Source of the DNA: Alphaproteobacteria bacterium
Lineage (GTDB): Bacteria; Pseudomonadota; Alphaproteobacteria; RF32; CAG-239
Direction: 5' to 3'
DNA length: 64,000 bases
Assembly: GCA_020025875.1 (NCBI GenBank)
Contig: JAHHRI010000002.1
Span: 1,078 to 65,077, forward strand
Shown: positions 2,907-52,719 of the stretch, one piece after another
Position numbering within the stretch: the stretch's first letter is position 1
How the letters are laid out: every line of letters begins with the position of its first letter
Position numbers and translations under genes: made by a program
The notes under the pieces: generated by a model
Databases searched by the model: none
Told to the model about the DNA's origin: nothing
The model's input: the letters and a program-made list of their open reading frames with translations, nothing else

Positions 2907-3308
2907 ATGAAATACAAGTCCCATTTTAATTTTTACCAGCACACTATAGCAGGTTTTAAAAACGCTAATCAAGCCGCACCATGACTTATTGTGTAAAAGT
3001 TTTTCTTTTCTGATTAAAAACAAAAGGTTGTATTGCGTACTGTTTAAACGGCAGCTGTTGTTTTGCGTACGGCAGATTGTTTGTCGTGAAAAGCAAAGCC
3101 CGTTTTGAAAAATGATTTTTATTGATTCGAAGTTGTTTCCTTTTTTGTTTGCAAAATCAATATGCAAATAGTTTTTTATATTACGGTGACTGTTACTGGT
3201 TTTAAAAAAACGGTAACATTTTTAGTATCATTTTCTCAATAAACGAACTTGACATATTTTGACATTAATATAATTTATTGCTCACTTATTATTTATTATT
3301 TTTTAATT

Positions 3309-3812
3309 ATGGAAGATAAAAAGAATTGCAAGATTCTAAAAAATAGTTTTTTAGAATCGCTAAAAGAAGGAATTACACCCCTTAAGTTGGAAAGTTTTGC
3401 TTCAATTTATTGGCAATGTGGCGGAAAAGAAGATTTTGAATCTGCTGTCGCAAATGTATTGCTAAAAATTGATGAGGTTTCAGAAATTATTCGAATGGTT
3501 CCTATTTTGATTAATCAAAGTCAAAATTATTCTAAATTTGTTTTTTGGGCAGAGCAATTATTTAATAAGTTGTCTGACCAAGATAAAAAAGCTGTTTCAG
3601 TTCCGATGATTTATTGGACTTTTGATGATGAATATACTTTGATTTCCGATGCGGAGTATGAGTATAGACGTGAGAATAAAAAAGTTACTTTTATTAAAGG
3701 AGAGAAGTATGCACGGCCGGCACATCTTATGGATTTAAGATGCTATGAAAAGGTGATTGAGATGATCTTCGCTTCCGGTACAGAAAAAGTTATTTTTGTC
3801 GGCGGTTATTGA
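3309..3812 (+). CDS. hypothetical cytoplasmic protein (orphan, AT-rich gene)
   Basis: ORF from the ATG at 3309 (MEDKKNCKILKNSF...). The TTG at 3249 would only add an implausible I/Y/F-rich extension. No motif recognised. Confidence 0.5.
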   Translation: MEDKKNCKILKNSFLESLKEGITPLKLESFASIYWQCGGKEDFESAVANVLLKIDEVSEIIRMVPILINQSQNYSKFVFWAEQLFNKLSDQDKKAVSVPMIYWTFDDEYTLISDAEYEYRRENKKVTFIKGEKYARPAHLMDLRCYEKVIEMIFASGTEKVIFVGGY

Positions 3813-3848
3813 TTGGTATTCTTGTCCTTTTAAGGGGCTGTTTGTCAA

Positions 3849-3876
3849 AAGGTTGCATTTCGGCAACCTTTTTTTG
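3849..3876 (+). terminator. intrinsic terminator after 3309..3812
   Basis: 8-bp stem AAGGTTGC (3849-3856) pairs with GCAACCTT (3863-3870), loop ATTTCG, then a T-run to 3876. Confidence 0.7.
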
Positions 3877-4170
3877 ATGGAAAACTTTTTAAATAGGAAG
3901 AAGAAAAAGGAATAAAAAAATTTCCTTTAAAACCAACAGCATCCAACACCATATAACAAAATAATGCAAATTCAATGCATTAACATAAGAATGATATTTT
4001 TTAAGCCGTAGATATGCCGTGTCTCTTTTTATGCTGTTTAAAGCCCGTTTTTTTTAAGCCTACAGAGGTTTTTGAGTGTTTAAGTATCACATACCGTAAG
4101 AACGGAAAACACAAAGCAATCAACTGATTTGGACAAATTTTACGCTCTTTGTTTTGTCTTAAATTTTTAC

Positions 4171-4195
4171 TTGCTAAAAATCATGATTTTGATAA
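4171..4195. promoter_or_regulatory. hix/gix-like imperfect dyad (candidate serine-recombinase site)
   Basis: TTGCTAAAAATCATGATTTTGATAA with a perfect 14-bp palindrome AAAATCATGATTTT (4177-4190). The bottom-strand arm TTATCAAAATCA matches 10 of 12 positions of the Hin half-site consensus TTATCAAAAACC, quoted from memory. Lies about 590 bp upstream of the recombinase gene. Confidence 0.3.
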
Positions 4196-4426
4196 AGTCA
4201 AATAAGCTCTTGAAAAAGAGCCAGAACCAGAGATGGTTCGGAGCCTTAGAAAGCTCTTATACAGAGCGGTGTTGGATATAACATCGTAATTGTCTGTCGA
4301 AACAGAACAATAGATATATCCCCGATTCATAACCATATGGTCGGGGAGGTTTTAGCGTATGTTCAAAAGCTCCGGCTTTAAAGGTTAAAACGGTCATCTC
4401 TCTGTATATGATTTTCTAACTCTCCG

Positions 4427-4455
4427 ACCGCCTTAAATCAGGCGGTTTCTGTTTT
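4427..4455 (+). terminator. intrinsic terminator or attenuator immediately upstream of the 4480 ORF
   Basis: ACCGCCT (4427-4433) pairs with AGGCGGT (4440-4446), followed by TTCTGTTTT. It ends about 25 nt before the ATG at 4480 and just before its GGAG RBS. Confidence 0.55.
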
Positions 4456-4479
4456 AATAAAATATGGAGTAGAAATCTT

Positions 4480-4695
4480 ATGAAAAAACTAGCAATAATT
4501 CTTTTAACTTCAGCCACTTTGTCTGGATGTGCTTCCATTATGGAGGGCAAAAGCCAAAATATAAACATGATGACATCTAATGGAGATAGCGTTAAAGCAG
4601 ATATTAGACAAGGAGATAATCACGCTGTTTGCAAATATCCTGCACGGTTTGACTATATTTTGCGTAGCTTGAAACTCAAAAAAACGGGATATTAA
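4480..4695 (+). CDS. short putative lipoprotein (possibly a truncated remnant)
   Basis: Lipobox LLTSATLSGC at the N-terminus and a GGAG RBS. Only 71 aa, and the C-terminal part looks unrelated to a folded domain. Confidence 0.45.
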   Translation: MKKLAIILLTSATLSGCASIMEGKSQNINMMTSNGDSVKADIRQGDNHAVCKYPARFDYILRSLKLKKTGY

Positions 4696-4787
4696 GCTGC
4701 CTGTTTGTAATGCTTATCAAGAATATCAAATGAAAGTTCCGACTCTGATTTAACAGCAAAAAAGTGTAAAAACTAAGTGGAATATCC

Positions 4788-5336
4788 TTGTTCAATTATA
4801 TAAGAGTAAGCACTGCCTTACAAAACACAGATAGACAGTTGGTTGGTGTAGCCTGCGACAGAGAATATATGGATAAACTTTCCGGCAAAGACACAAACAG
4901 ATCTCAGCTCCAAGCTATGATTGATAGCCTAAGAGAAGGCGACATTGTCAACGTTTACTCAATGGACAGACTTGCTCGTAATGTGCAAGACTTGTTATCT
5001 TTGATTGATACTATAATCAATAAAGGGGTAAAGATACAATTTTATAAGGAAAATTTAACTTTTGAAGTAAACAAGAAAACGGATACATTTCAAAAACTAA
5101 TGTTAACCTTACTGGGAGCTGTTTCTGAATTTGAAAGAGAAATCATTTTAGAAAGACAAAGAGAAGGAATAGTCATAGCCAAACAAAAAGGCAGGTGTAA
5201 AGGTGGTCAAAAAAAGCTTTCAGACGAACAAATAAAAGAAATCAAGGCGCTGGTATCCGTGAAAAGACTCCATATAACTGAAATTGCAAAGCAGTATAAA
5301 ATCACCCACCAAACAGTTTATAATCTGATGAAATAA
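4788..5336 (+). CDS. small serine recombinase (resolvase/invertase family)
   Basis: N-terminal YIRVSTALQNTDRQ (catalytic Ser), SMDRLARN, SEFEREIILERQREGI, and a C-terminal HTH (ITEIAKQYKITHQTVYNLMK). 182 aa with a TTG start at 4788. Confidence 0.9.
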   Translation: MFNYIRVSTALQNTDRQLVGVACDREYMDKLSGKDTNRSQLQAMIDSLREGDIVNVYSMDRLARNVQDLLSLIDTIINKGVKIQFYKENLTFEVNKKTDTFQKLMLTLLGAVSEFEREIILERQREGIVIAKQKGRCKGGQKKLSDEQIKEIKALVSVKRLHITEIAKQYKITHQTVYNLMK

Positions 5337-5433
5337 AGATGATTAAAAAAGCACACAGATTAGGTACAAAAACTAGGTAGAGAAACAAAAAAAACGACTC
5401 TATAAGTCGCTGTTTTCGCATAATTTTTTGAAA

Positions 5434-5508
5434 TGGTGCCGCTAGCAAGAATCGGACTTGCGACCCCACCCTTACCAAGGGTGTGCTCTACCACTGAGCT
5501 ATAGCGGC
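5434..5508 (-). tRNA. tRNA-Thr (anticodon GGU)
   Basis: Reverse complement is GCCGCTATAGCTCAGTGGTAGAGCACACCCTTGGTAAGGGTGGGGTCGCAAGTCCGATTCTTGCTAGCGGCACCA. It has a 7-bp acceptor stem, anticodon loop TTGGTAA, a T-arm GGTCGCAAGTCCGATTC, and an encoded CCA. Confidence 0.95.
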
Positions 5509-5845
5509 GTAACCGAATTGAGGGCAATATAAAACATCTTTTTTATAAATGCAATCATATTTTTACGATAATTGATAAAAAAGTGTAAGATGTTTTTATC
5601 TTGTTGACGGACAATGTTTTTTTGGGGCAAAGGGAGAGTTTTTTCCAAGGGCTGCGTTGCGGTAAGAAATGGGGCGACGAAAAAGGAAGGGAAAAAACGG
5701 AGGAGCCGGCAAGGGATATAACGGCGGCAAAATCAGCGGGAGAGCGGTGTCGTCGCGCATATTCTTGCGGTTAATTTTTGATTTTAGGTTGCCTTTGCCA
5801 TGAAAAAAATTATATTTATTGATGAAAAGGAGAGGATGACACCAG

Positions 5846-6097
5846 ATGCAGAAGATAATATCTTGGATTTTTATGTTTTTATTTGTCGGGTTGACATTTT
5901 CGTTTTTTTTATATGTCGCCTCAATTATTATTCCGATTTTGTTTTTTGCGGTATTTGTCGGTTTCTTATGGCTTCGTTACAAGCAACACAAAGCGGTAAG
6001 GCTGATGTTTGGGGACCGTAAAGGAGGCGATGATCGGCGTTCGCAAGGGGAAATTATTGACGTGGAATATGAAATTATAGACGATAAAAAGCATTAG
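5846..6097 (+). CDS. small membrane protein, two predicted TM helices
   Basis: 83 aa with two hydrophobic stretches (WIFMFLFVGLTFSFFLYVA and IIIPILFFAVFVGFLWL) and a charged tail. Chosen over the overlapping 5800..6021 ORF. Confidence 0.5.
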   Translation: MQKIISWIFMFLFVGLTFSFFLYVASIIIPILFFAVFVGFLWLRYKQHKAVRLMFGDRKGGDDRRSQGEIIDVEYEIIDDKKH

Positions 6098-9654: not shown

Positions 9655-10983
9655 ATGGAGAAAATATCATCGAAGGAACTGCTTGCCGTGGTCGAATCCG
9701 CTTCGGAGGTGGCAGACAGGGTTATTGATCGGGTGACGACGGACAGCAGACAGGCGGTAGACGGCGCATTGTTTGTCGCCGTGCGCGGTGAAAATTTTGA
9801 CGGACATGATTTTGTCGGTCAGGCGTTGGATAAAGGCGCGGCCTTGGCATTGGTGGAAAGACCGCTTTCGGGGGTGCCGCTTGATCGGCAAGTGGTGGTC
9901 AAAAATACGCTTGACGCTTATGGCAAAATCGGTGCGTATAACCGTTCAAAATTTAGAGGAACGGTTATCGGCTTGACCGGAAGCGCCGGCAAGACAACCA
10001 CCAAGGAGGAAATTAAATTTGCCCTTTCCCGTTTTGGACGGGTGTATGCCACTTCCGGCAACCATAACAATCATATCGGAGTGCCGATGAGCTTGTGCGA
10101 AATGGATATGAACGCCGATTATGCCGTCATTGAGATGGGCATGAGCGCCAAAGGTGAAATTGCCCGTCTGACCTCGTATGTTCAACCTGATGTGGCTTTG
10201 GTGACCAATGTTTACCCGATGCATATTGAATTTTTTGAAAATTTTGCGGGAATTGCCGAAGCCAAAGCGGAGATTTTCGAAGGTTTGAAAAAAGGCGGTG
10301 TTGCGTTGATCAACGAAGATACCCATTTTGCAGACATTTTGGAACAACGCGCTTTGGAACACGCTGCCCGTGTGGTTAAATTTGGCCGCTCCCATCATTA
10401 TGCGGGCAAACTGACATTGGAGCAAGAAGGCGAAGCGCAGCTGTATAATGCGTGGGCAACCTTGGCTGTCGTTGAAGCTTTGGGGCTGGAGGTCGACAAA
10501 GCCGCGGCGGCATTGAAAGATTTTGGCGCTTTGCCGGGGCGGGGCAAAACTCATCGGTTGAAATTGCCGTCGGGCGGCGCGTTTACACTGATAGATGACA
10601 GCTATTCCGGACAGCCCGAAGCGATGATGTTGGCGATTGACGGCTTGGATAAGCAGGTGTGCGCGGGGCGAAAAATTGTGGTTCTCGGCAAAATGGCAGA
10701 GTTGGGACAAACCGCCGAAGCACGCCACAAAGAAATTGGCAAACGTCTTTCTGCAACTTCGATAGCCGTTGCCGTCGGTGTGTGTCCGGATATGCGTACC
10801 ATGCTTGCCGAACTAAGGCCGGATCAGGAAAAGCACTATTTTGAAGACAAACAGGGCGTGGTGGAATTTCTCTTAAATAATCTGTTGCAAAATAATGATA
10901 TTTTGCTTATAAAAGGAGCCAGATATTCGTCAAAATTATATCAGGTAACAGATGCATTGCTGAAAGGGCTGGAAAAAGCATGA
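9655..10983 (+). CDS. murF: UDP-N-acetylmuramoyl-tripeptide--D-alanyl-D-alanine ligase
   Basis: Mur ligase P-loop [13 protein letters not shown], plus [16 protein letters not shown] and [11 protein letters not shown] blocks. 442 aa. Confidence 0.93.
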
Positions 10984-20041: not shown

Positions 20042-20587
20042 ATGGAAGAACGAAAATCGCAGTCCGGCTATACCCTGATTGAGTCGATTATGTTTATCGG
20101 TGTTGTTTCGATGTTGGCAATAGCCGTGATATCTCTGATCAACAGTATGCTTGACAAATACAGAATGAGCCGAGTTACCCAGCAGATTGTGGATTTGCAA
20201 AAAAATATCGATTTTCGTTTCTCTTCGGCAGAAAATTTCGAAAATCTGAAAGCCAAATTGCTAACGGATGAAAGCATCGTTCCGGGAGATATGGTGGACG
20301 GAACAAAGATTCGTCATGCCTATAAAGGTCCCGTGACAATCAGGAGCCGGCAAAGCCACAGTGTTTATGAGGTGATGTTTGGGGAGCTGCCGTATCATGC
20401 CTGTACGGAATTGGCGATGATCGACTGGATGACCGGTTACAATTCGCATCTGGTGCATATTAAAATTAACAGCAAATTTTTTACATGGCAGGGGAAAAAA
20501 CAAGGTAAATTGCCGATGGAATATAGTGCCGCGTTGGCAGCTTGCCAAGATAATCGTAATAATGTCATTATTTGGCAGTTTCAGTAA
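20042..20587 (+). CDS. type IV pilin / pseudopilin-like protein (class III signal peptide)
   Basis: The N-terminus MEERKSQSG|YTLIESIMFIGVVSMLAIAVISLI has Gly at -1, Glu at +5 and a hydrophobic helix. No other pilus or T2SS genes are nearby. Confidence 0.65.
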   Translation: MEERKSQSGYTLIESIMFIGVVSMLAIAVISLINSMLDKYRMSRVTQQIVDLQKNIDFRFSSAENFENLKAKLLTDESIVPGDMVDGTKIRHAYKGPVTIRSRQSHSVYEVMFGELPYHACTELAMIDWMTGYNSHLVHIKINSKFFTWQGKKQGKLPMEYSAALAACQDNRNNVIIWQFQ

Positions 20588-41412: not shown

Positions 41413-43584
41413 TTATGCCGTTTCTTCGCCTAAACCAAGTTTTTCAAGCATATTGTCGTTGATGTCCTCACGTTGGGCAACAATCCACTCAGGGACGTTC
41501 GGGGCTGCCGGCAGCTTTGACAAAGCCCGCATTTTGGGATCCAGATAATAGCGTGGAGAATCGGCAATAATCGGTCTGTCGATGTAGCTTTGATAGAGAA
41601 TCACCTGCTTGAGCATCGGCAAGCTCAACAACTGAGATGTTGTGATAACCGAAACCCGCTGCAGTTGGTAGCTGACGTTTTTGGAAAACGGGTTAGCTTG
41701 TTTGGAAAAGCCTTCCTGCTTGGAATAAGATGACGTTTGCACGGTTTTGTCGCCGACCATCTTTGAAAAACGTTGAGCCGTTTGTTCGTTGTTCTGCGAC
41801 AAGATAATCTTGCAGGCGGTGGTAGAGATAACGGTTTCCAAGTCGTCCTTACCATATTTTCCGGAGATTTGCCCCAAGTCTTGTCCGATCAGGAGATAAG
41901 ACACTTTTTGTCCACGTCCGACTGCCGGTCCATCAATAACCGCTTTCAGCTTGGGCATTTGCGGAAACTCGTCCAAAACAAACAGAGCGGGGAACGGTCC
42001 CATTTTGCCGTCTGTGGCGTTTACATAGTTCGGCGGGTTGGAAATCAAATAAGATGACATCAGCTCAATGAAAATGCCGCTGATAACCCCCAAAGCTCTG
42101 GCGTCTACCTGATTGATCGACAGATAAACCGAAATCGGCTTCCATTCGCCGGTGATGGGGTCTTTCATACCGCGCAGATCTTTAAACTGCAAGTCTGAAA
42201 AACAGGTTCGGGAAACAACCGCGGAGTTCTTAAAGACGCCGATCCCCGAAAATGCCGTCGACATAACCGAACCACGTTCTTTGTCGGGCATATTGCTTAA
42301 AGTGGAAAGCTCGGTATAGGCGCGTTGCGAATAGCCGTATTTGCGCGCCTCCTCAATCGCGGCATCCAGAAGATCACGCATGGGGTCTGCCATTGCCGCC
42401 ATCTGATCGCCTTCTGCCAGACGACGTTTAACTTCTTGCCCCTGTTTGATCTGTGCCTCGGTCAGCCATTCCATAATCATGGCAATACAGGCCTCTCTGC
42501 CGATCCATTTATCCGGCAGCAGATCCCAAGTGCCGATCGGCACATAATTTTCAACCGTCAGATTGTTGTTGCGCAAATCATTGATGGCGCGTCTCACATC
42601 GGGATTGTGCGTTCTGATGTCTTCGTAGTAGCCTTCCAGCACCTGTTTGTCTTCATCATCCAGCTTACCTTCGTAAATGCGCCCGATAAAATAGTCGTTG
42701 GCGCGTGCTTTTTCGCATTTGGAAGAAATAAAGTGTATAAAACCGGTCAATGCGGCGCGTCCCGTTTGCGACCAGTGAGGATCTGCCCCGCCTTTGGGGT
42801 CTTCCACCAAAATGTTGCACATGGAGTCCACATACATATCTCGCGCCGGTCCCTGCGCCGGCAGAGCCGACGGCGACAACGGATTCCAGCTTGGATAATA
42901 TAGCCCTTCCGCCGGATTATCTTCGGCGCCCCAGTTGATGATAAAAACCGGTCCTTCTTTGGCGCGCGCACCCGAAGTGCTGAAACACAATTCCGGTTTA
43001 GGATCGTTGATGACCAAACTGAGGCCTTTGGAGTTGAAAATTGTCGGAATAACCACGCCGGCGGTTTTACCGGTACCCGGAGGTGCGCAGCATAGTGTGG
43101 AAAGTGTTTCCGGCAATTTGAGATAATAGCCTTTGAATTTGCCGATAACCATGCAGAAACCGTCCAAAAGCTTCATTGCTCTGATGTCTTTTAAGGTCGC
43201 AATGCGACCGGATCCATGAATGTTTGACTGAAAGCGGTAAGGGTTGGTAACGGCCCCGATAATTAGCCCGATAGGTAACGAGAGAACCGGCAAAATCGGC
43301 AGCCACAGTGAAAAGCTAAACGGCCCGTGATAGTTGCCGATCTGGCGCATCCAGTTCCAGTATCGCGAAAACAGGTATGACGGATCGTGAAAGATCATGT
43401 TGATAAATTTGCCGACATTGTCCATAGATTCCTTGGAAATGCCGTTGCCGATGATATAACCCAGCGGCATGGAGATAACTGCCAGAAAAACCGTAACCAG
43501 AAGTGTAATGATGACGGTCAGAGACATCCATTGCACGGCGTGGTCATATTCTTCCCATTCTTCTCCTCGTTTTTGTAATCCCAT
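41413..43584 (-). CDS. type IV secretion coupling protein, VirD4/TraG family ATPase
   Basis: Two N-terminal TM regions, HGSGRIATLKDI, Walker A CCAPPGTGKTAGVVIPT, DPHWSQTGRAALTG, Walker B ALFVLDEFPQMPKL, and LIGQDLGQISGKYG. Strong RBS AGAGGTG before the ATG. Confidence 0.9.
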   Translation of the reverse strand: MGLQKRGEEWEEYDHAVQWMSLTVIITLLVTVFLAVISMPLGYIIGNGISKESMDNVGKFINMIFHDPSYLFSRYWNWMRQIGNYHGPFSFSLWLPILPVLSLPIGLIIGAVTNPYRFQSNIHGSGRIATLKDIRAMKLLDGFCMVIGKFKGYYLKLPETLSTLCCAPPGTGKTAGVVIPTIFNSKGLSLVINDPKPELCFSTSGARAKEGPVFIINWGAEDNPAEGLYYPSWNPLSPSALPAQGPARDMYVDSMCNILVEDPKGGADPHWSQTGRAALTGFIHFISSKCEKARANDYFIGRIYEGKLDDEDKQVLEGYYEDIRTHNPDVRRAINDLRNNNLTVENYVPIGTWDLLPDKWIGREACIAMIMEWLTEAQIKQGQEVKRRLAEGDQMAAMADPMRDLLDAAIEEARKYGYSQRAYTELSTLSNMPDKERGSVMSTAFSGIGVFKNSAVVSRTCFSDLQFKDLRGMKDPITGEWKPISVYLSINQVDARALGVISGIFIELMSSYLISNPPNYVNATDGKMGPFPALFVLDEFPQMPKLKAVIDGPAVGRGQKVSYLLIGQDLGQISGKYGKDDLETVISTTACKIILSQNNEQTAQRFSKMVGDKTVQTSSYSKQEGFSKQANPFSKNVSYQLQRVSVITTSQLLSLPMLKQVILYQSYIDRPIIADSPRYYLDPKMRALSKLPAAPNVPEWIVAQREDINDNMLEKLGLGEETA

Positions 43585-43596
43585 TTATTTCACCTC

Positions 43597-45111
43597 TTAA
43601 CTCATGCTGCGGATTAGTTTCATAACTTTGTCCAGTTTTGATGCGGGAATTGATTTTTCGGCTTCGGAAAGTGTTCTCGCAAACAGCTTGATTTCTTTAG
43701 GCGTACCCCTGTCAATTCGGGTGACGTTGATGTTTAATTCGTCCCATATTTCAAACATATCTTCTGCGTTAATAATATTACCTATTTGCACGATCACAAA
43801 AGCGTCGACGATAAAATTCATTTCCGCGTTGCTTAGTTTATCAAGCAAAACTTGTTTTGCCAAGTCTATTTTGCGCACCGGAGAAATTCGGTGTGTGCTT
43901 TCCGAAAACCACAAAGGCTCCTCATCGTTAAAGCGTTCTTCGTCAGCCAACCAGTCGCCCGGTTCGCGGTCGAGTATGCACAGGCAGATGCGATCTCCCG
44001 AAACACCGACATAGTCGATGAGTGTGTTTTTGATGGTAACGCGACTGATAACTTCGTAACCTTTTTGTTTGATGATATCCAGACAGGAGCCGCCGGGCTG
44101 ACGAGCGGGAATCGGGACGGTTGAAACTCTGTCTTTTCGGCGTTCGTTGTTGCGGTTGCGGGAACGTTCGTCTTTTCGTTCTTCGCGCCGATCATCACGC
44201 CGATCATCACGCCGATCATCACGCCGATCATCACGCCGATCTTTTTCTCGGCGTTCGTCGCGTTTGTCGGCATTCCGGTCACGCGAGAGATCGTTTCTGC
44301 GCTCATAGTCGTGATCGCGGCGGCGGTCGTCATCACGGTCTCTGCGGTTGTCTTCCCGATTGCGGCTGTCTTTGCGTTCTCTGCGGTTGCGCGACGTATT
44401 ATAGTCGTCGTCCTCTTCTTCGCGACTGCCCGTCCGTGCGGATTGGGCAGAGCCATAGGTTGATTTTTCCTTGGATTTTTGGGTTTCGATTTCAAAAGAA
44501 TCTATATCAAAATCCAAGTCGTCAAAATTGTCGTCAAATTTAAACAGAGCGTGCTCAAAGTTTTTCGGCGCGCTCTCTCTTTCTGTCGCAACGGACGATT
44601 GAGGTGCCACGGTCATTTGCGGCGTTACCAGAGCAGGGGAAACGGTGGGAATGGTCATCGGCATCTGCGATACTTCTCTGTGCTCGCCGGCAGCCACGCT
44701 GCGAACAGCCCGCGGGCGGATTTCTTTATAAGATTTTTTCTTTTTTATGGGGGTGACACCGGTATTGGTGGTGATAATTTTGACCGGTTTGTAAAAGAAA
44801 TTCTTAAATAGTTTCCAAGGCAGAGAGAGAATAAACCATACGACTTTTCCCCAAGAAACAAGGCTCAAGGCAATCCAGCCGGTAAACCACAGCGGAATAA
44901 AAGAGATGATGATGAGAACAAAGGCCCATTCTTTGGGCTCGGAAATGACCCATGAGTTGAGCCACAACTCCCAAGCGATCTGCCAGTGCCCCATGTCGAG
45001 GATGTCAAAATGCCAGTTGCGAAGCATGATAACGCGTATGCTTTCCATAAAGAAAACACTCCACAACAGGCCGACAATTATAATTCTGGTCAGTATCAGT
45101 AAGGGCTTCAA
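43597..45111 (-). CDS. hypothetical membrane protein: N-terminal 3-TM module, Arg/Asp-repeat linker, C-terminal NERD-like domain
   Basis: 504 aa. The TTG start at 45111 has a GGAG RBS and preserves the TM1 that is homologous to the upstream paralogue. Has a DRRD-repeat run, and the C-terminus has GYEVISRVTIKNTLIDYVGVSGDRICLCILDREPGDW. Confidence 0.75.
   Translation of the reverse strand: MKPLLILTRIIIVGLLWSVFFMESIRVIMLRNWHFDILDMGHWQIAWELWLNSWVISEPKEWAFVLIIISFIPLWFTGWIALSLVSWGKVVWFILSLPWKLFKNFFYKPVKIITTNTGVTPIKKKKSYKEIRPRAVRSVAAGEHREVSQMPMTIPTVSPALVTPQMTVAPQSSVATERESAPKNFEHALFKFDDNFDDLDFDIDSFEIETQKSKEKSTYGSAQSARTGSREEEDDDYNTSRNRRERKDSRNREDNRRDRDDDRRRDHDYERRNDLSRDRNADKRDERREKDRRDDRRDDRRDDRRDDRREERKDERSRNRNNERRKDRVSTVPIPARQPGGSCLDIIKQKGYEVISRVTIKNTLIDYVGVSGDRICLCILDREPGDWLADEERFNDEEPLWFSESTHRISPVRKIDLAKQVLLDKLSNAEMNFIVDAFVIVQIGNIINAEDMFEIWDELNINVTRIDRGTPKEIKLFARTLSEAEKSIPASKLDKVMKLIRSMS
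44187..44241. repeat. 12-bp tandem repeat, about 4.6 copies, inside the 43597..45111 CDS
   Basis: GCCGATCATCAC is repeated head to tail from 44187. On the minus strand it encodes the (DRRD)n run. Confidence 0.9.
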
Positions 45112-45178
45112 TTAAATCTCCATAAAGTTTTAACTATTGTATACGCGAGATGGTTAACAAGTGTTTTACATCCTCCGA

Positions 45179-45703
45179 TTAATTGTCGCCCGATTCCATT
45201 TTTTCGTGGAATTTACGATTTTTTTGCTCAAAATTGCTGCGAATCTTGTTCGAGTTGAGGTCCTTTTTCTTTTTTTCCTTAGGCATTCTGCTGGAGATCA
45301 TCTCTTCCATCATTTGCTGCGGTGTCTGATTTTTTACTTTGCTTCCGCCCATGTTTTTCAGCACAATACGCGCCGGCTGATTGGCATATTTGCGGCTGAC
45401 ATAGTCGTGGTACCAAAAAACGGGGAAGAAAATAATTCTGACATAAGAGAGTTGTCTTGCTTTTTTGAAGCCAAAAAACCAGCCGGGAATAATTAAAACC
45501 AACATGAGCAGGAACATATATTCCGACAGTTGGTCAATGACGCCGCCGGCACTCCAAAATTTGCTGATGATGAGCCAATAGCGTTTTTCTAAAATATTGA
45601 AATGCCAAAAATAATTCATAATCAGGCTAATGAACCAAAAGTAAAAAACGGTCCAGCCCACAAAAATGAAAATCAACTTCAGATGGTTGGCGAGTTTCTT
45701 CAT
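45179..45703 (-). CDS. hypothetical membrane protein, paralogous to the N-terminal module of 43597..45111
   Basis: 174 aa. FWHFNILEKRYW aligns with NWHFDILDMGHW, and LVLIIPGWFFGF aligns with IIISFIPLWFTGW. Has a basic Lys-rich tail. The start lies 2 nt after the upstream stop. Confidence 0.7.
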   Translation of the reverse strand: MKKLANHLKLIFIFVGWTVFYFWFISLIMNYFWHFNILEKRYWLIISKFWSAGGVIDQLSEYMFLLMLVLIIPGWFFGFKKARQLSYVRIIFFPVFWYHDYVSRKYANQPARIVLKNMGGSKVKNQTPQQMMEEMISSRMPKEKKKKDLNSNKIRSNFEQKNRKFHEKMESGDN

Positions 45704-45705
45704 GG

Positions 45706-47499
45706 CTACATCTCGTATCCGCTGCGTGCGTCATATTGCCAGCCGCGGAAACCGTTTTTCCGCCCTTCGGCAACCGCTTCTTGCTGTTTGTTGTTTTTGA
45801 TTTGATTGATGCGCGAGGCAAGCAAACCGCCTCTTTGCGAATGTTGTGTCTCTCGCGCCGCCAAATCGTTTTCTTTGTCTTTAAGAGATTCTTGCTTGTC
45901 TTTAAGCTGCCCGTCTGTCGTTTGGTTGTTAACGGCTTCGTCACACATACTCTGCTGGCGGCGGGAAACATCTTCCTGCTGCGGATTTTTTATCTCGTTG
46001 TCGCGGCGCGCTTTCTCCTCCTCCGCTTCGCGTTTTGCTGTTTGCAGCTTTTGTTCTTCCGGCAGTTGTTGCGTGCGGCTCTGATTGTCTACCATTTTTT
46101 CTAAGTTGGTCAGCGTTTTGTTTGCCGGCGGTTCTTTTCCCATTTCCGCAATCTTGAAGCGAGTGATGGTATGGGCGGCGTTGTGAGATGCTTGCCAAGA
46201 CATATCATAGTAGCGCTGGATTGTCCCCGGCGTATTCAAATTCAGCGGGGACATGATGAAACTTGAAGACTCGGGTTTAACGTTTGTACCGGTGATATAT
46301 TTGTTCTGCTCTTTAATCGTTGCTTTGCTTAAAGAGGTGTGCTGCTGTATAAAATCGCTTTTAAATGTTTCCGCAATATCCTTGCCGTTAAACGCGGCGC
46401 CGTCTCTGGCGACTTTGTCAAGTATCCGCGCTTCCGCCATGTTGAGCGCCGTTTGATCGATCAGGGAATTGAAATAATTTTTTCTTCCCTCGTGTTGAGC
46501 AAAGCGAGCGCCTAATTTGCACATATCTTTTTGCGCGTTGACGAGGTCTTTGTGCTGCTGTTTTGCCAGCTCAAAAACCTCTTTGTCTTTGGGGTTGGAA
46601 CTGTTTTGGAGCTTTTTCATCGCTTTTTGTTTGCATTGACGGTCTTTTTTCAAATCTTCCCGCGTAATACCCAAGGTGCCGTATAATTTGTTTTCGCTGC
46701 TTGTCAATTGGTTTTGGGCATTGATAATTTCAAACATGGCCTTGTGTCGGGGATTTTCGATTTTGTTCGTATCAATGCGCCCGTCTTGAGTTTGATATTG
46801 TTGATATTGCTGAAGCTGCTCATTGTTGACGCCGTGTGTTTCCGCCAACATTTCAAGCGCGGAGCGATTGCCGATTTTGGCGTTCGGATCGTTTAGTCGC
46901 CCTTCGCCCAAAATGCGGCTCAGCTGATGAGTTTGCTCTTTTTGCTTGCGATGGCGTTCGGCGATGTTTTTGTTGTTTTGGGCCTTGAGCTCTTTGATTT
47001 TGTTATAGACATTATAGGCGTTTGTGGCTTTCCCCTGTTTAATATTTGCCAGATATTTGTTGCCTTTGTCGATCATATTGCGCTCTAACTTGTTGTAGGC
47101 ATTGCCGACGGTTTGTTCGATTTTTCCGCCGCTCCAGCAAAAAAACGCAATTAACCATTCGTTATACATATATTTGATGATATCGTCTTCCGAAAACTTC
47201 TTTTTTTCGGGGTCGTCCTCTTTGATATTGTCGTCTTTCTTTTCGTTGGTAACACCCTGCGCGTCGTTTTCGATTGCTTTCTTTTCATCTTCCAGTTTGG
47301 CACGCTGATCAACGGTTAAGATGTCGCTTTTAAGCTGCTGGTTGATTTCTACCAGCCTTTCTTGTTTGCTTTGATTGATGGTGACGGATGCTTTCTGCGC
47401 TGTTTTATCAGATGTCGCATTCCCTGGTTGCATCGCTGCAGGCTGGGGGCGTTCCTCCGGTGCTCTCGTCGGTTGAGATTTGCTTTCTTGTTCTGCCAT
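45706..47499 (-). CDS. hypothetical 597-aa Q/K/N/E-rich, largely coiled-coil protein
   Basis: Long uninterrupted ORF with a good RBS (AAAGAGGA). Has one short hydrophobic patch (EWLIAFFCWSGG). No catalytic motif recognised. Confidence 0.75.
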   Translation of the reverse strand: MAEQESKSQPTRAPEERPQPAAMQPGNATSDKTAQKASVTINQSKQERLVEINQQLKSDILTVDQRAKLEDEKKAIENDAQGVTNEKKDDNIKEDDPEKKKFSEDDIIKYMYNEWLIAFFCWSGGKIEQTVGNAYNKLERNMIDKGNKYLANIKQGKATNAYNVYNKIKELKAQNNKNIAERHRKQKEQTHQLSRILGEGRLNDPNAKIGNRSALEMLAETHGVNNEQLQQYQQYQTQDGRIDTNKIENPRHKAMFEIINAQNQLTSSENKLYGTLGITREDLKKDRQCKQKAMKKLQNSSNPKDKEVFELAKQQHKDLVNAQKDMCKLGARFAQHEGRKNYFNSLIDQTALNMAEARILDKVARDGAAFNGKDIAETFKSDFIQQHTSLSKATIKEQNKYITGTNVKPESSSFIMSPLNLNTPGTIQRYYDMSWQASHNAAHTITRFKIAEMGKEPPANKTLTNLEKMVDNQSRTQQLPEEQKLQTAKREAEEEKARRDNEIKNPQQEDVSRRQQSMCDEAVNNQTTDGQLKDKQESLKDKENDLAARETQHSQRGGLLASRINQIKNNKQQEAVAEGRKNGFRGWQYDARSGYEM

Positions 47500-47606
47500 C
47501 TTCAGGGTCCTCTTTAATCTAAGACTTTTATTAAAATCTGCTTATTGTCAAATTGTAGCATTGTTTTTTTGTTTTGTCTATAATTTTTCTATAAACTTTA
47601 CTTTGT

Positions 47607-48521
47607 CTATATTTTGAGCTTTTTTAAAAATTCTCCGATTTTTCGGTTAAAAACCAAGCCGTCTCGCGGGGACGGTTTGATCAGCCCGAAAAACTTCGGT
47701 TTTATTTTGTCAATTTTAATCGGGGCAAAGATTGCCGGATTGTTGGTCAGGGCCTTAAAAGAGCCTTCCGGATCTTTTTGCGCCACTTTGAAGTATCCGT
47801 GAACCAATTTTGTAGCATCGATGGGAAATTTTTTCTTTTCGATGGCATCAATATATTTGCGTGCCCGTTCGCCGCGTTTGCGGTGTTCTTCGATAATTTC
47901 TTCTTCGATCTTGCGGTGTTCATATTCCAGCAAGCGTTTTTCGTAAGCAATTTCACAACCCTCAATTTCAAACAGAATTTCGACATAAGAAACAACGGCC
48001 ATCTGCAAATTTTCGTCGGTATGCTGTTCGGCAAAATCCAGCAGTTCTTCGTCGCCGGCATTGGGTTGGATGTTGATGATGTCTTGGGGAAAAGCCTCAA
48101 ACATGGTATCCCAGCCCTGCAGAACGTCAATGCTGATCAGGTTGCCCAAGCTGGGGGTGTAGCGTGGGTATAAGACCTGCGCTTTAATATGGAAAACGGG
48201 GGCTTCCAAACCATGCGCGTCGGCAATGAACTGAATCGAATCAACATAGTTGCGGTATGCGGTGTAGAGCTTTTGTTCCGCCAGTTCGAGCGAGCCGGCC
48301 ACTTCTTTGTCGCTGGCGTTGGTTTTAATCGGTCGCGGTTCCGGTTCTTCCAACATGACGCGGGTGTTGTTTTTTTCTTCCTCGATGTTTTTTAGTTCCG
48401 ATTGGATAAAATTGTCGAGTAAAAGGTTAAATTCTTCATCCTCTTCAGCCGGAAAAGTTGCTTTGCCGTCGGGGACGTCTTCGGTCAGTCTTTTGATGAT
48501 GTCTTCAGAATTTTCGCTCAT
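47607..48521 (-). CDS. hypothetical acidic protein
   Basis: 304 aa from the ATG 48519-48521 with a GAGGT RBS that overlaps the stop of the upstream small ORF. The 68-aa N-terminal extension in the ORF track is discarded. Confidence 0.65.
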   Translation of the reverse strand: MSENSEDIIKRLTEDVPDGKATFPAEEDEEFNLLLDNFIQSELKNIEEEKNNTRVMLEEPEPRPIKTNASDKEVAGSLELAEQKLYTAYRNYVDSIQFIADAHGLEAPVFHIKAQVLYPRYTPSLGNLISIDVLQGWDTMFEAFPQDIINIQPNAGDEELLDFAEQHTDENLQMAVVSYVEILFEIEGCEIAYEKRLLEYEHRKIEEEIIEEHRKRGERARKYIDAIEKKKFPIDATKLVHGYFKVAQKDPEGSFKALTNNPAIFAPIKIDKIKPKFFGLIKPSPRDGLVFNRKIGEFLKKLKI

Positions 48522-48528
48522 TTTAACC

Positions 48529-48798
48529 TCAGTTGATATTGATGGTGGAAATTGTTTGATATGTTTCTGTGTCAAAAATAATAATTCGGTCTGCTTTGTC
48601 GCCGCCTTTTGCCAAAATATACAATTTTTTCCCCGCCGCAGCCATGCCGTCGATCCGCGAATGGGCGGGTTCTTTAAGAGTGACGTTTGCCGGCGGCGTC
48701 GGCTTGCCGCGCGTATGGGAAACAAGTTTGATAAAGCCGAAAAACAGCAAAAAAGTCAGGACAAAAACGACGGCTTTTAAGATCTTGAGCTTTGACAT
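48529..48798 (-). CDS. small membrane-anchored hypothetical protein
   Basis: 89 aa, one TM (AVVFVLTFLLFFGFI), then a beta-rich tail (KLYILAKGGDKADRIIIFDTETYQTISTI). Translationally coupled to 47607..48521. Confidence 0.55.
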   Translation of the reverse strand: MSKLKILKAVVFVLTFLLFFGFIKLVSHTRGKPTPPANVTLKEPAHSRIDGMAAAGKKLYILAKGGDKADRIIIFDTETYQTISTININ

Positions 48799-48878
48799 AA
48801 ACTTAAACCCTTGCAATTTGACAAATAACCTGTATACATCAAAAAAGATTATATAACATAAATTTTATTTTCGCAAAC

Positions 48879-50868: not shown

Positions 50869-51483
50869 ATGATGAACAATGAGCAGGTCAAGGAGCGGAA
50901 CTTGTCCCCTGAAAACGGAAGCAGCCAAACCGGTCGGTACGGATATACCAAGCCGGACGATTATCCGAGCTGTATGTATGATGAAGAAACGGGGCTGCCG
51001 AGTTTTAACCTCTTTGAAGACCGTTTGATGATGGCGTTGATTAACGAAAGAGCGAAGAATCGGCGGATGCGGAAACAAAATATTGCGGTGATCGGTGTGG
51101 CTATTGAAAACTTTGCCGATTTTTCCGTGCCGTCCGTCCGCGCCGCGGTGATGCGCAAGACGGCGGAGCGCTTGACGGGGATTTTGCCGCCAAATCATAC
51201 CGTGGCTCGCGGCATCAACTATCCTTTTTGGATTATGATTCCTTCTCTGTCGACCGGAAAAGAGGCAGAAACATGGGTTGATAAAATAAGAGAGGCTCTC
51301 CGGCAGGAGGTTTCCGTTCGCGGGCAAGTGTATGGCTTACAATGTCGTTTCGGGGTCAGCCTTTTTGAACACGATCCGCAAGACACGGTAACGACTTTGG
51401 TCGGTAAGGCCATCGCTTCTTTGCAAAAAGCCGCTGCCGGTCATTGCGATGTTGTTTATTTTTTTGAGCTGGCTAAAGGTTAG
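50869..51483 (+). CDS. GGDEF-fold protein lacking the GGDEF signature (degenerate diguanylate cyclase-like)
   Basis: DEETGLPSFNLFEDRL resembles D-x-LTGLPNR-x-F. At the active-site position it has VARGINYPFWIMI instead of R-x-GGDEF. The tail is GVSLFEHDPQD...L...A..ALQKA. Confidence 0.6.
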   Translation: MMNNEQVKERNLSPENGSSQTGRYGYTKPDDYPSCMYDEETGLPSFNLFEDRLMMALINERAKNRRMRKQNIAVIGVAIENFADFSVPSVRAAVMRKTAERLTGILPPNHTVARGINYPFWIMIPSLSTGKEAETWVDKIREALRQEVSVRGQVYGLQCRFGVSLFEHDPQDTVTTLVGKAIASLQKAAAGHCDVVYFFELAKG

Positions 51484-52234: not shown

Positions 52235-52543
52235 TTATTTTTTCGTTGCCCGTTCGGAGGCTTGCCGCAACGATCTGACGGCGCTGGCGGCAATGTTTAA
52301 GCTTGAGGCGGCATTGATGTCATCGCCGTTTAAATTTAAACGTCGCATACAAAGACGTAATGCTTCCTGAGCGGCAGTCCACTCGTCGGCTGAGAGTTTT
52401 CCGCTTTCCTGCCAGCCGTAGATTTCTCCCAGCATACAAGAATTGAGCCGGCCGGTTGTCGTCCGCGGGGTTTTGTCGATCGGCGTTGCGGCGCAGCCGA
52501 CAATCAGCAGAGAGGAAAGGACGGCGATTGTGGTTTTGAGCAT
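52235..52543 (-). CDS. hypothetical lipoprotein
   Basis: Lipobox LLIVGCAAT. The ATG at 52541-52543 is preceded by AAGGAG. Confidence 0.55.
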   Translation of the reverse strand: MLKTTIAVLSSLLIVGCAATPIDKTPRTTTGRLNSCMLGEIYGWQESGKLSADEWTAAQEALRLCMRRLNLNGDDINAASSLNIAASAVRSLRQASERATKK

Positions 52544-52719
52544 GGTTTTCTCCTTTGTTTTTTTTGTTTTCATCCAACTTAAGAAAATTTTGCAAAGATT
52601 AGGTTAACAAATAAAAATATCTTCAAAAATGTCATTTTTTGATAGATTTTTGCATTCTTCCATGCTATAGGGAAAGCAGAAATTTTTTCTAACATGGTTA
52701 ACATTTACAAGGAAATAAA

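Follow-up and report, generated by a model that had tools for sequence, protein, structure and literature searches.

Coupling ATPases of the VirD4/TraG type (type IV coupling proteins, T4CPs) are, to our knowledge, understood only as gatekeepers of type IV secretion and conjugation. What, then, does such an ATPase do on a chromosome where no secretion channel is encoded beside it? The question is raised by a 64-kb stretch of DNA (64,000 nt, hereafter called the window) from contig JAHHRI010000002.1 of an Alphaproteobacteria bacterium (assembly GCA_020025875.1), in which six minus-strand genes, named g1 (first) to g6 (last), run head to tail and end with the T4CP. The answer that we favor, with a probability of roughly 45%, is that uncultured gut Alphaproteobacteria inherit this locus vertically as a module whose center is a domesticated ATPase of the VirD4 type, which would work as a membrane motor independently of any type IV secretion system (T4SS).

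The g6 gene (41413..43584, minus strand) encodes a 723-aa protein with the full architecture of a T4CP: it combines a membrane anchor with an all-alpha domain and a nucleotide-binding domain that carries the Walker A and Walker B motifs. It matched the Pfam family T4SS-DNA_transf (PF02534) with 198.7 bits (cut-off 20.1, E-value 2e-58) and also exceeded the cut-offs of TraG-D_C (PF12696, 85 bits compared to 22) and TrwB_AAD_bind (PF10412, 61.5 bits compared to 20.5). The Walker A (APPGTGKT, residues 167–174, 43063–43086) and Walker B (VLDEF, residues 536–540, 41965–41979) motifs, both on the minus strand, are intact; across the relatives of g6, K173 is invariant and D538 is invariant or nearly so. 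These matches and motifs confirm the identification of the last gene made in a preliminary description of this DNA. N-terminal hydrophobic segments are predicted at about residues 15–50 and 89–115 (Kyte-Doolittle scan), and the protein ends in an acidic C-terminal tail. The family profile of g6 was closest to Cag5/VirD4 (8dol, E-value 1.5e-11), ahead of TrwB and DotL (E-value 0.0057 for DotL); single-sequence PDB searches with g6 and with its relative P0173 gave no match. Among the curated NCBIfam T4CP subfamilies compared (VirD4 PRK13897/PRK13850, IncP TraG, Ti TraG, F TraD, SXT TraD and CD1115), g6 did not reach the cut-offs, scoring 142 bits against the 250 of CD1115 and 125 against the 728 of VirD4, and 10 of its relatives likewise stayed below every one of them. 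A Dot/Icm-like coupling complex was considered and rejected, as the family profile prefers Cag5/VirD4 to DotL and the partner proteins match no Dot/Icm family. We conclude that g6 is derived from a conjugative VirD4 and that it is intact and highly constrained.

When 50%-identity protein clusters were searched exhaustively with the T4CP, 246 clusters were returned at E <= 1e-30; among the full-length relatives, group A is the closer to g6 and group B the more distant. Approximately 165 chromosomal loci, with T4CP identities spanning 22–96%, were fetched. In a neighbor-joining tree (200 bootstraps), 35 chromosomal orphan T4CPs formed one clade (bootstrap 80), sister to plasmid-borne, T4SS-linked T4CPs, the union of both being supported by a bootstrap of 96. 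The orphans carry a signature between Walker A and Walker B, A-x-A-N-D-Y-F (ARANDYF in g6, residues 293–299, 42688–42708, minus strand), which was present in 35 out of 35 (with L as final residue in two), whereas five plasmid relatives and IncP TraG lack it. Within 10 kb of the T4CP, none of the ~165 loci yielded a virB homologue: tblastn with the Erythrobacter VirB2–B11 set against these loci and the window (2.8 Mb) gave no match beyond two plasmid loci, which were the query and the control. We found no description in the literature of this module or of a pairing between a NERD protein and a T4CP. While the T4CP gene family is known, the A-x-A-N-D-Y-F clade, its partners and its channel-free chromosomal context are new.

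The surroundings of the cluster in the window were surveyed through Pfam scans of 30 further larger open reading frames (ORFs) and the existing annotation of the orthologous 22 kb. Most of the window outside the cluster is housekeeping (ftsZ, mur genes, RND efflux, PFOR, nagA/B, rpoH, rluD, xseB and ispA), a few of the surveyed ORFs lacked a Pfam match, and neither a relaxase nor any VirB, Trb or Tra gene was recognized in the 64 kb, in agreement with what had been noticed at first sight. The neighborhoods with Pfam annotation that were sampled among the fetched loci likewise consist of housekeeping genes. A scan of one genome per GTDB species with an 11-sequence T4CP alignment identified a T4CP relative in 449 species genomes. 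Among the best 80 of these 449, all of them gut alphaproteobacterial metagenome-assembled genomes (MAGs), including CAG:495 and Candidatus Scatocola, the T4CP is 74–96% identical and RpoH 60–92% identical. Near-identical T4CPs (95–96% identity) came from human and animal gut samples and bear labels such as 'Azospirillum sp. 51_20' or 'Alphaproteobacteria bacterium'. A lack of conservation of the six-gene arrangement in every other genome had been set beforehand as a refuting result, and the outcome is clearly the opposite: the order rpoH-rluD followed by g1-g2-g3-g4-g5-T4CP is kept in essentially all of these 80 species, while the arsR-xseB-ispA arrangement on the downstream side does not extend to the more distant of the 80 loci.

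The ratios of non-synonymous to synonymous substitution rates (dN/dS) were calculated against three relatives and are approximate, dS being near saturation. With 0.026–0.038, the T4CP lies between PFOR (0.015–0.03) and RpoH (0.04–0.06); it is among the slowest-evolving genes compared and is constrained like core enzymes. The other genes follow with 0.05–0.07 for g2, 0.09–0.11 for g4, 0.10–0.16 for g5, 0.19–0.31 for g3 and 0.24–0.37 for g1, the least constrained of the six. Judged from their sequences, all six are real genes under purifying selection. In GC content the cluster is like its flanks and the remainder of the window. Neither an integrase or relaxase gene (checked within 10 kb) nor a repeat boundary was found near it, and database searches gave no relative of the T4CP in IMG/VR, no match of g5 in PLSDB or phage records and no match of g2 in PLSDB. 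Together, these results show that the locus is core, vertically inherited and chromosomal, and neither a mobile element nor an island. The view that it is not a fragment of a conjugative element is borne out by the host-like composition, the synteny across ~80 species, the purifying selection and the absence of IMG/VR relatives.

A gene lies directly upstream of the T4CP, at 0–27 nt or overlapping it, almost constantly across the clade, and its type differs by lineage. In the window this gene is g5 (43597..45111, minus strand, TTG start), which encodes a 504-aa membrane-anchored NERD-like protein in three parts: a membrane anchor, a charged linker of variable length and a C-terminal NERD-like domain. 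The membrane domain (residues 1–126, 44734..45111, minus strand) consists of two hydrophobic helices with a Trp-rich loop between them, after which comes a stretch rich in Lys; because of this stretch after the anchor helices, the positive-inside rule predicts that the C-terminus should be cytoplasmic. The neighboring gene g4 (45179..45703, minus strand) encodes a 174-aa membrane protein with a basic tail, whose paralogy to g5 is confined to the membrane domain of the latter (28% identity to the first 126 residues of g5, E-value 3e-15), and so the paralogy of membrane proteins proposed earlier is real. The linker contains a perfect 12-nt tandem repeat of 4.7 copies (44186..44241, minus strand) that encodes (DRRD)n, the RD repeat of the preliminary description; this repeat is absent in L088, and g5 varies from 404 to 517 aa among species.

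The NERD-like domain itself (residues 325–504, 43600..44139, minus strand) comprises 180 residues with a predicted PD-(D/E)xK fold. An alignment of homologs revealed invariant D, D-x-E, GDWLA, PLWFSE..HR.SPV and NIIN.E.M elements, the acidic site being formed by D42, D57 and E59 (domain numbering), i.e. a D...D-x-E arrangement with glutamate in place of lysine. The Pfam NERD model (PF08378) was matched at E <= 0.05 by 28 of the 49 homologs of the domain, one of which (P0488) exceeded the gathering score with 28.1 bits against 22.1. The window g5 gave no such match, so that the earlier label 'NERD-like' holds at the level of the family and the copy in the window stays under the Pfam threshold. 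An AlphaFold2 model of the domain, built with the homolog alignment, reached a mean predicted local distance difference test score (pLDDT) of 90.8 and a predicted template-modeling score of 0.84. Its top Foldseek matches were nearly all PD-(D/E)xK proteins, namely 3fov, 1y88, NucS/EndoMS, R2 restriction-like endonuclease, Hjc, RecU and a phage NERD protein, and they were weak (E-values 3e-4 to 0.1, template-modeling (TM) scores 0.3–0.5). We conclude that the g5 C-terminal domain is probably NERD-like, with a predicted restriction-endonuclease fold.

All RF32-type loci have a g5 ortholog as the immediate upstream neighbor of the T4CP. The same is true of the sister lineages L088, L092 and L093 (T4CP ~55% identical), in which the anchor and the NERD part are encoded by one fused gene or by two; in L092 the membrane domain is a separate gene of 117 aa. 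The g4 gene was located by BLAST in most RF32-type loci. In more distant members of group A (P0123, P0133, P0137, P0130, L134 and others), the position directly upstream of the T4CP is taken by a soluble pentapeptide-repeat protein of 330–520 aa, and the same holds for the great majority of the group B loci from gut metagenomes. These pentapeptide-repeat partners end in very basic tails, and Pfam annotation of sampled neighborhoods of the loci that encode them identified housekeeping genes. In the tree, the pentapeptide-linked subclade received a bootstrap of 97 and the NERD-linked subclade one of about 51–55. The basal member P0122 has neither type of partner: the 151-aa gene upstream of it was checked and is not NERD-like. 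An apparent 1164-aa ORF fusing g5 to the T4CP in L011 was discarded as an artefact of a 100-N scaffold gap (9900–10000).

Several further features were observed around these T4CPs and their partners. Two conserved genes, X and Y, come after the T4CP in the sister lineages (L088, 12265–13334; L092, 4311–5623; L093, 2898–4020). The product of X (212–287 aa) contains an invariant motif, H-L-K-Y-P-L-x-Y-G-G...N...P-x-H, that recalls HNH nucleases, and it gave no Pfam or PDB match; Y encodes 144–157 aa, and two of its three copies gave sub-threshold matches to the SMI1/SUKH immunity family (E-values 0.009–0.1). Most of the distant pentapeptide-linked T4CPs of group B (e.g. L105, 9941–12298, and L095, 10001–12352) share a C-terminal (D/E)WW(L/M)xExAF...NPF motif that is absent in g6. 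On Azospirillum argentinense plasmid p5 (L091, 1–14496), a 28%-identical T4CP comes directly after a giant 'AAA family ATPase' gene of ~27 kb, a hypothetical gene of 5.8 kb and a small hypothetical one, with no virB genes in the 26 kb shown. A pilin-like gene in L088 (13456–13803) and a prepilin peptidase gene in L087 (483–1220) lie within 10 kb of the T4CP, which may be coincidence. Finally, the 271-aa P0434, from a 1,027-bp JGI contig, combines in one ORF a degenerate FtsK/SpoIIIE-like segment (PF01580, E-value 1.3e-13, model positions 57–147) with a g5-type NERD-like domain; either the domain is truly fused here to a different ATPase of the FtsK superfamily, or the ORF may be a chimera created in assembly.

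All six minus-strand ORFs were found where they had been described, and the intergenic gaps, re-derived from the sequence, are in order 7, 107, 2, 67 and 12 nt, with GAGG/GGAG-type Shine-Dalgarno-like sites upstream of g2, g3, g5 and g6; the junctions are as tight as was first noted, the gap between g1 and g2 being 7 nt. The g1 gene (48529..48816, minus strand) encodes a small single-pass membrane protein. Its mechanical ORF starts at TTG 48816; the probable start is ATG 48798, which agrees with the gene calls in relatives. It matches DUF6476 (PF20082) with 26.0 bits for a cut-off of 24, and its orthologs are annotated alike, which corrects the earlier statement that no partner carries an assignable motif. 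We regard g1 as a tentative member of the module. The g2 gene (47607..48521, minus strand) encodes an acidic (isoelectric point 4.95) soluble protein of 304 aa, in which the C-terminal ~200 aa are well conserved in the ortholog alignment. It gave no match in Pfam, NCBIfam or PDB sequences, profile search included, a comparison with X found no relation, and its single-sequence AlphaFold2 model (pLDDT 46.8) is unusable. The g3 gene (45706..47499, minus strand) encodes a hydrophilic, helix-rich and fast-evolving protein of 597 aa. Its slot is occupied in 75 of 75 loci by an ORF of 437–755 aa; the orthologs share a single conserved patch at about residues 101–125, and no family match was obtained in Pfam or NCBIfam, divergent orthologs included. 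Both g2 and g3 were found in RF32-type loci only and appear to be lineage-specific accessories. The window copies of g2 to g5 had no match in Pfam, NCBIfam or PADLOC, and scanning divergent orthologs of g2, g3 and g4 against Pfam produced nothing above noise.

Two promoter-like sites were identified by consensus match only: TTGCGA-17-TATAAT (48848..48876, minus strand), located before g1 in the intergenic region from which g1 and rluD diverge, and TAGACA-17-TG-TACAAT (47552..47580, minus strand) in the 107-nt gap between g2 and g3, which could serve as a second transcription start for g3 to g6. Because a promoter and terminator scan gave a site count in the region that is not above chance, the claim of a single operon is one of gene spacing.

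How could such a set of proteins work? We propose, tentatively, that a hexamer of the T4CP would assemble in the inner membrane together with the hairpins through which g5 and g4 are anchored there, with the cytoplasmic NERD-like domain of g5 sitting at the mouth of the motor. The ATP-driven motor would engage and thread a nucleic acid or a DNA-like substrate, which the NERD-like domain may bind or cut. In other lineages, a pentapeptide-repeat protein would fill the same position. The pentapeptide-repeat fold is known as a DNA mimic, and because proteins of this fold hold the partner position elsewhere, DNA could be the common theme. The function would be housekeeping or lifestyle-critical, without dependence on a dedicated adjacent T4SS, and its role would be neither conjugative transfer nor anti-phage defence. 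A broader version of this proposal, in which the whole A-x-A-N-D-Y-F clade (~450 species-level genomes) was recruited to a T4SS-independent and near-essential inner-membrane role that could handle or translocate DNA with a NERD-like or pentapeptide-repeat protein, seems rather unlikely to us.

A number of observations weigh against a T4SS-independent motor, and several of them speak for its strongest rival, which we regard as a serious candidate. According to this explanation, the locus encodes a substrate-receptor complex for a T4SS whose VirB4, VirB6 and VirB8–11 components are encoded at distant loci, as in the scattered rvh system of Rickettsiales; g2 to g5 would be lineage-specific adaptors, chaperones or substrates (as DotM/DotN/IcmSW around DotL), and the pentapeptide-repeat proteins and g3 would be effectors. 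All characterized T4CPs feed a T4SS, and we know of none that works without one. The nearest cultured relatives of g6 (32–36% identity), on megaplasmids of Sphingosinicella, Erythrobacter, Microvirga and Thalassospira, are genuine VirD4 proteins at the 3' end of canonical virB2–virB11 operons, and the Sphingosinicella, Erythrobacter and Microvirga loci also hold relaxase, TopoIII, primase or Rad52 genes. The very basic tails in which the pentapeptide-repeat partners end would be in keeping with T4SS substrates, as strongly basic C-terminal tails serve as VirB/D4 secretion signals. Pentapeptide-repeat proteins have been proposed as candidate rvh effectors in Rickettsiales (PMC11077975). The g3 protein is fast-evolving and length-variable, as effectors often are. 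In the sister lineages, X (with its HNH-like motif) and Y could be a toxin-immunity pair, which would fit T4SS substrates as well, although the SUKH matches are sub-threshold. A virB or trb locus may exist elsewhere in the genome, our searches having covered the window and the fetched loci, and the 165 unlinked loci are not independent evidence, because the split from the channel genes may have been a single ancestral event. The proposed mechanism has its own weak points. The best Foldseek matches of the g5 domain (E-values 3e-4 to 6e-3, TM scores 0.3–0.5) are weak. The domain may be non-catalytic because it has D...D-x-E where the canonical PD-(D/E)xK site is D...(D/E)-x-K. The interaction of the T4CP with g5 and g4, the nuclease activity of g5 and the substrate are all putative.

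Other results nevertheless speak against a distant T4SS. No T4SS gene was found within 10 kb of the T4CP in ~165 loci that span 22–96% T4CP identity, whereas the virD4 of Rickettsiales stays beside virB8–11. The invariant A-x-A-N-D-Y-F motif is new to the clade, and its absence from T4SS-linked relatives suggests a changed specificity. The partners of g6 have no match to Tra, Trb, Dot or Icm families in Pfam and NCBIfam, a comparison that had also been set beforehand as a refuting test. We keep the T4SS-independent motor as the favored explanation.

The preliminary description had also suggested a defence module, in which an FtsK/HerA-superfamily ATPase and a PD-(D/E)xK nuclease would capture and cut incoming plasmid or phage DNA at the membrane. 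The pairing of an ATPase with a nuclease-fold protein, a membrane location suited to intercepting entering DNA, the hypervariable repeat linker of g5 and the fast evolution of g3 are all in line with it. None of the six proteins had a significant PADLOC match, however, the T4CP reaching mad8 with an insignificant 14 bits (E-value 0.005). The locus is syntenic and core in every related species examined and lacks island features, unlike a patchy island of fast turnover; its ATPase evolves as slowly as PFOR, and in most lineages the partner is a pentapeptide-repeat protein and not a nuclease. Because of this core-gene behavior and the lack of a significant PADLOC match, defence is disfavored, and we consider it improbable.

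A decaying remnant of an integrated conjugative or mobilizable element that lost its channel and relaxase, as might be imagined from a T4CP family normally found on mobile elements and from one resolvase gene in the window, is effectively excluded by six intact genes under purifying selection, synteny across ~80 species, genome-like composition, the lack of an integrase, relaxase or repeat boundary nearby (the resolvase being 36 kb away) and the absence of g2 and g5 relatives in plasmid and viral collections.

This resolvase ORF (4788–5336, plus strand; serine resolvase/invertase, Pfam Resolvase 3e-34 plus HTH_7) is the sole mobile-element gene of the window. It lies with small ORFs that have no matches in a stretch of low GC content (3001–6000, 30–37% compared to about 47% elsewhere), which is probably a small inserted element. 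Elsewhere in the window, a 181-aa protein (20042–20587, plus strand) matches type IVb pilin families (Bundlin 2e-7, PilS 1e-5); its gene is directly upstream of dksA and maf, in housekeeping surroundings. A 204-aa ORF after rpoH (50869–51483, plus strand) and a 112-aa lipoprotein-like ORF (52235–52573, minus strand) have orthologs in relatives without a recorded Pfam match, and both are syntenic in the closest relatives (L002–L004).

Whichever of the two leading explanations is right, a large and strongly conserved chromosomal T4CP clade was never found beside channel genes and is paired instead with nuclease-fold or DNA-mimic-fold proteins. If the motor is T4SS-independent, a coupling ATPase would here, for the first time, have been turned to a different nucleic-acid transaction at the membrane, and it would be the first shown to work without a T4SS channel. 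If a distant T4SS exists, it would be an unrecognized and widely dispersed one, with new adaptor and effector families, in bacteria that are very prevalent in human and animal guts. In either case, the label 'conjugative DNA transfer family protein' given to these T4CPs in MAGs may wrongly suggest mobile elements.

Compared to known systems, g6 shares its Pfam domains and architecture with the VirD4/TraG/TrwB proteins of VirB/D4-type (MPF_T) plasmids (Erythrobacter aureus, Sphingosinicella sp. BN140058 and Microvirga sp. VF16), to which it is 33–36% identical over 84–98% of the length. These plasmid T4CPs end virB2–virB11 operons and lack the A-x-A-N-D-Y-F motif of the g6 clade, whereas g6 is chromosomal with no channel gene within 10 kb. 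The rvh T4SS of Rickettsiales resembles our locus in having a chromosomal, vertically inherited and strongly conserved VirD4 in Alphaproteobacteria with small genomes, but none of the fetched loci of the g6 clade has a virB gene close to the T4CP. The Dot/Icm system of Legionella (DotL, DotM, DotN, IcmS/W and LvgA) is alike in that the T4CP gene has neighbors encoding a membrane partner and small proteins of acidic or adaptor type, all of which would join into one complex of several subunits. Dot/Icm genes sit among channel genes, and g6 is not of the DotL type, given the E-values of its family profile (0.0057 for DotL, 1.5e-11 for Cag5/VirD4) and partners outside the Dot/Icm families. Among NERD (PF08378) proteins, whose model is matched by more than half of the g5-domain homologs (28/49) and to which a predicted fold resembling PD-(D/E)xK nucleases may link the domain, the window g5 stands apart through its sub-threshold score, its D...D-x-E site, and a fusion to a two-helix anchor and an obligatory T4CP pairing for which we found no precedent in the literature. 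Finally, the HerA-NurA pair of DNA end resection and the HerA-nuclease defence systems follow a similar logic, with a nuclease-fold protein encoded beside a ring ATPase from the superfamily of g6. Their sequences are unrelated to those of g6 and its partner, and there was no significant PADLOC match: g6 belongs to a different family, that of the membrane-anchored T4CPs, its partner is NERD-type and tethered to the membrane, and its locus is core and not an island.

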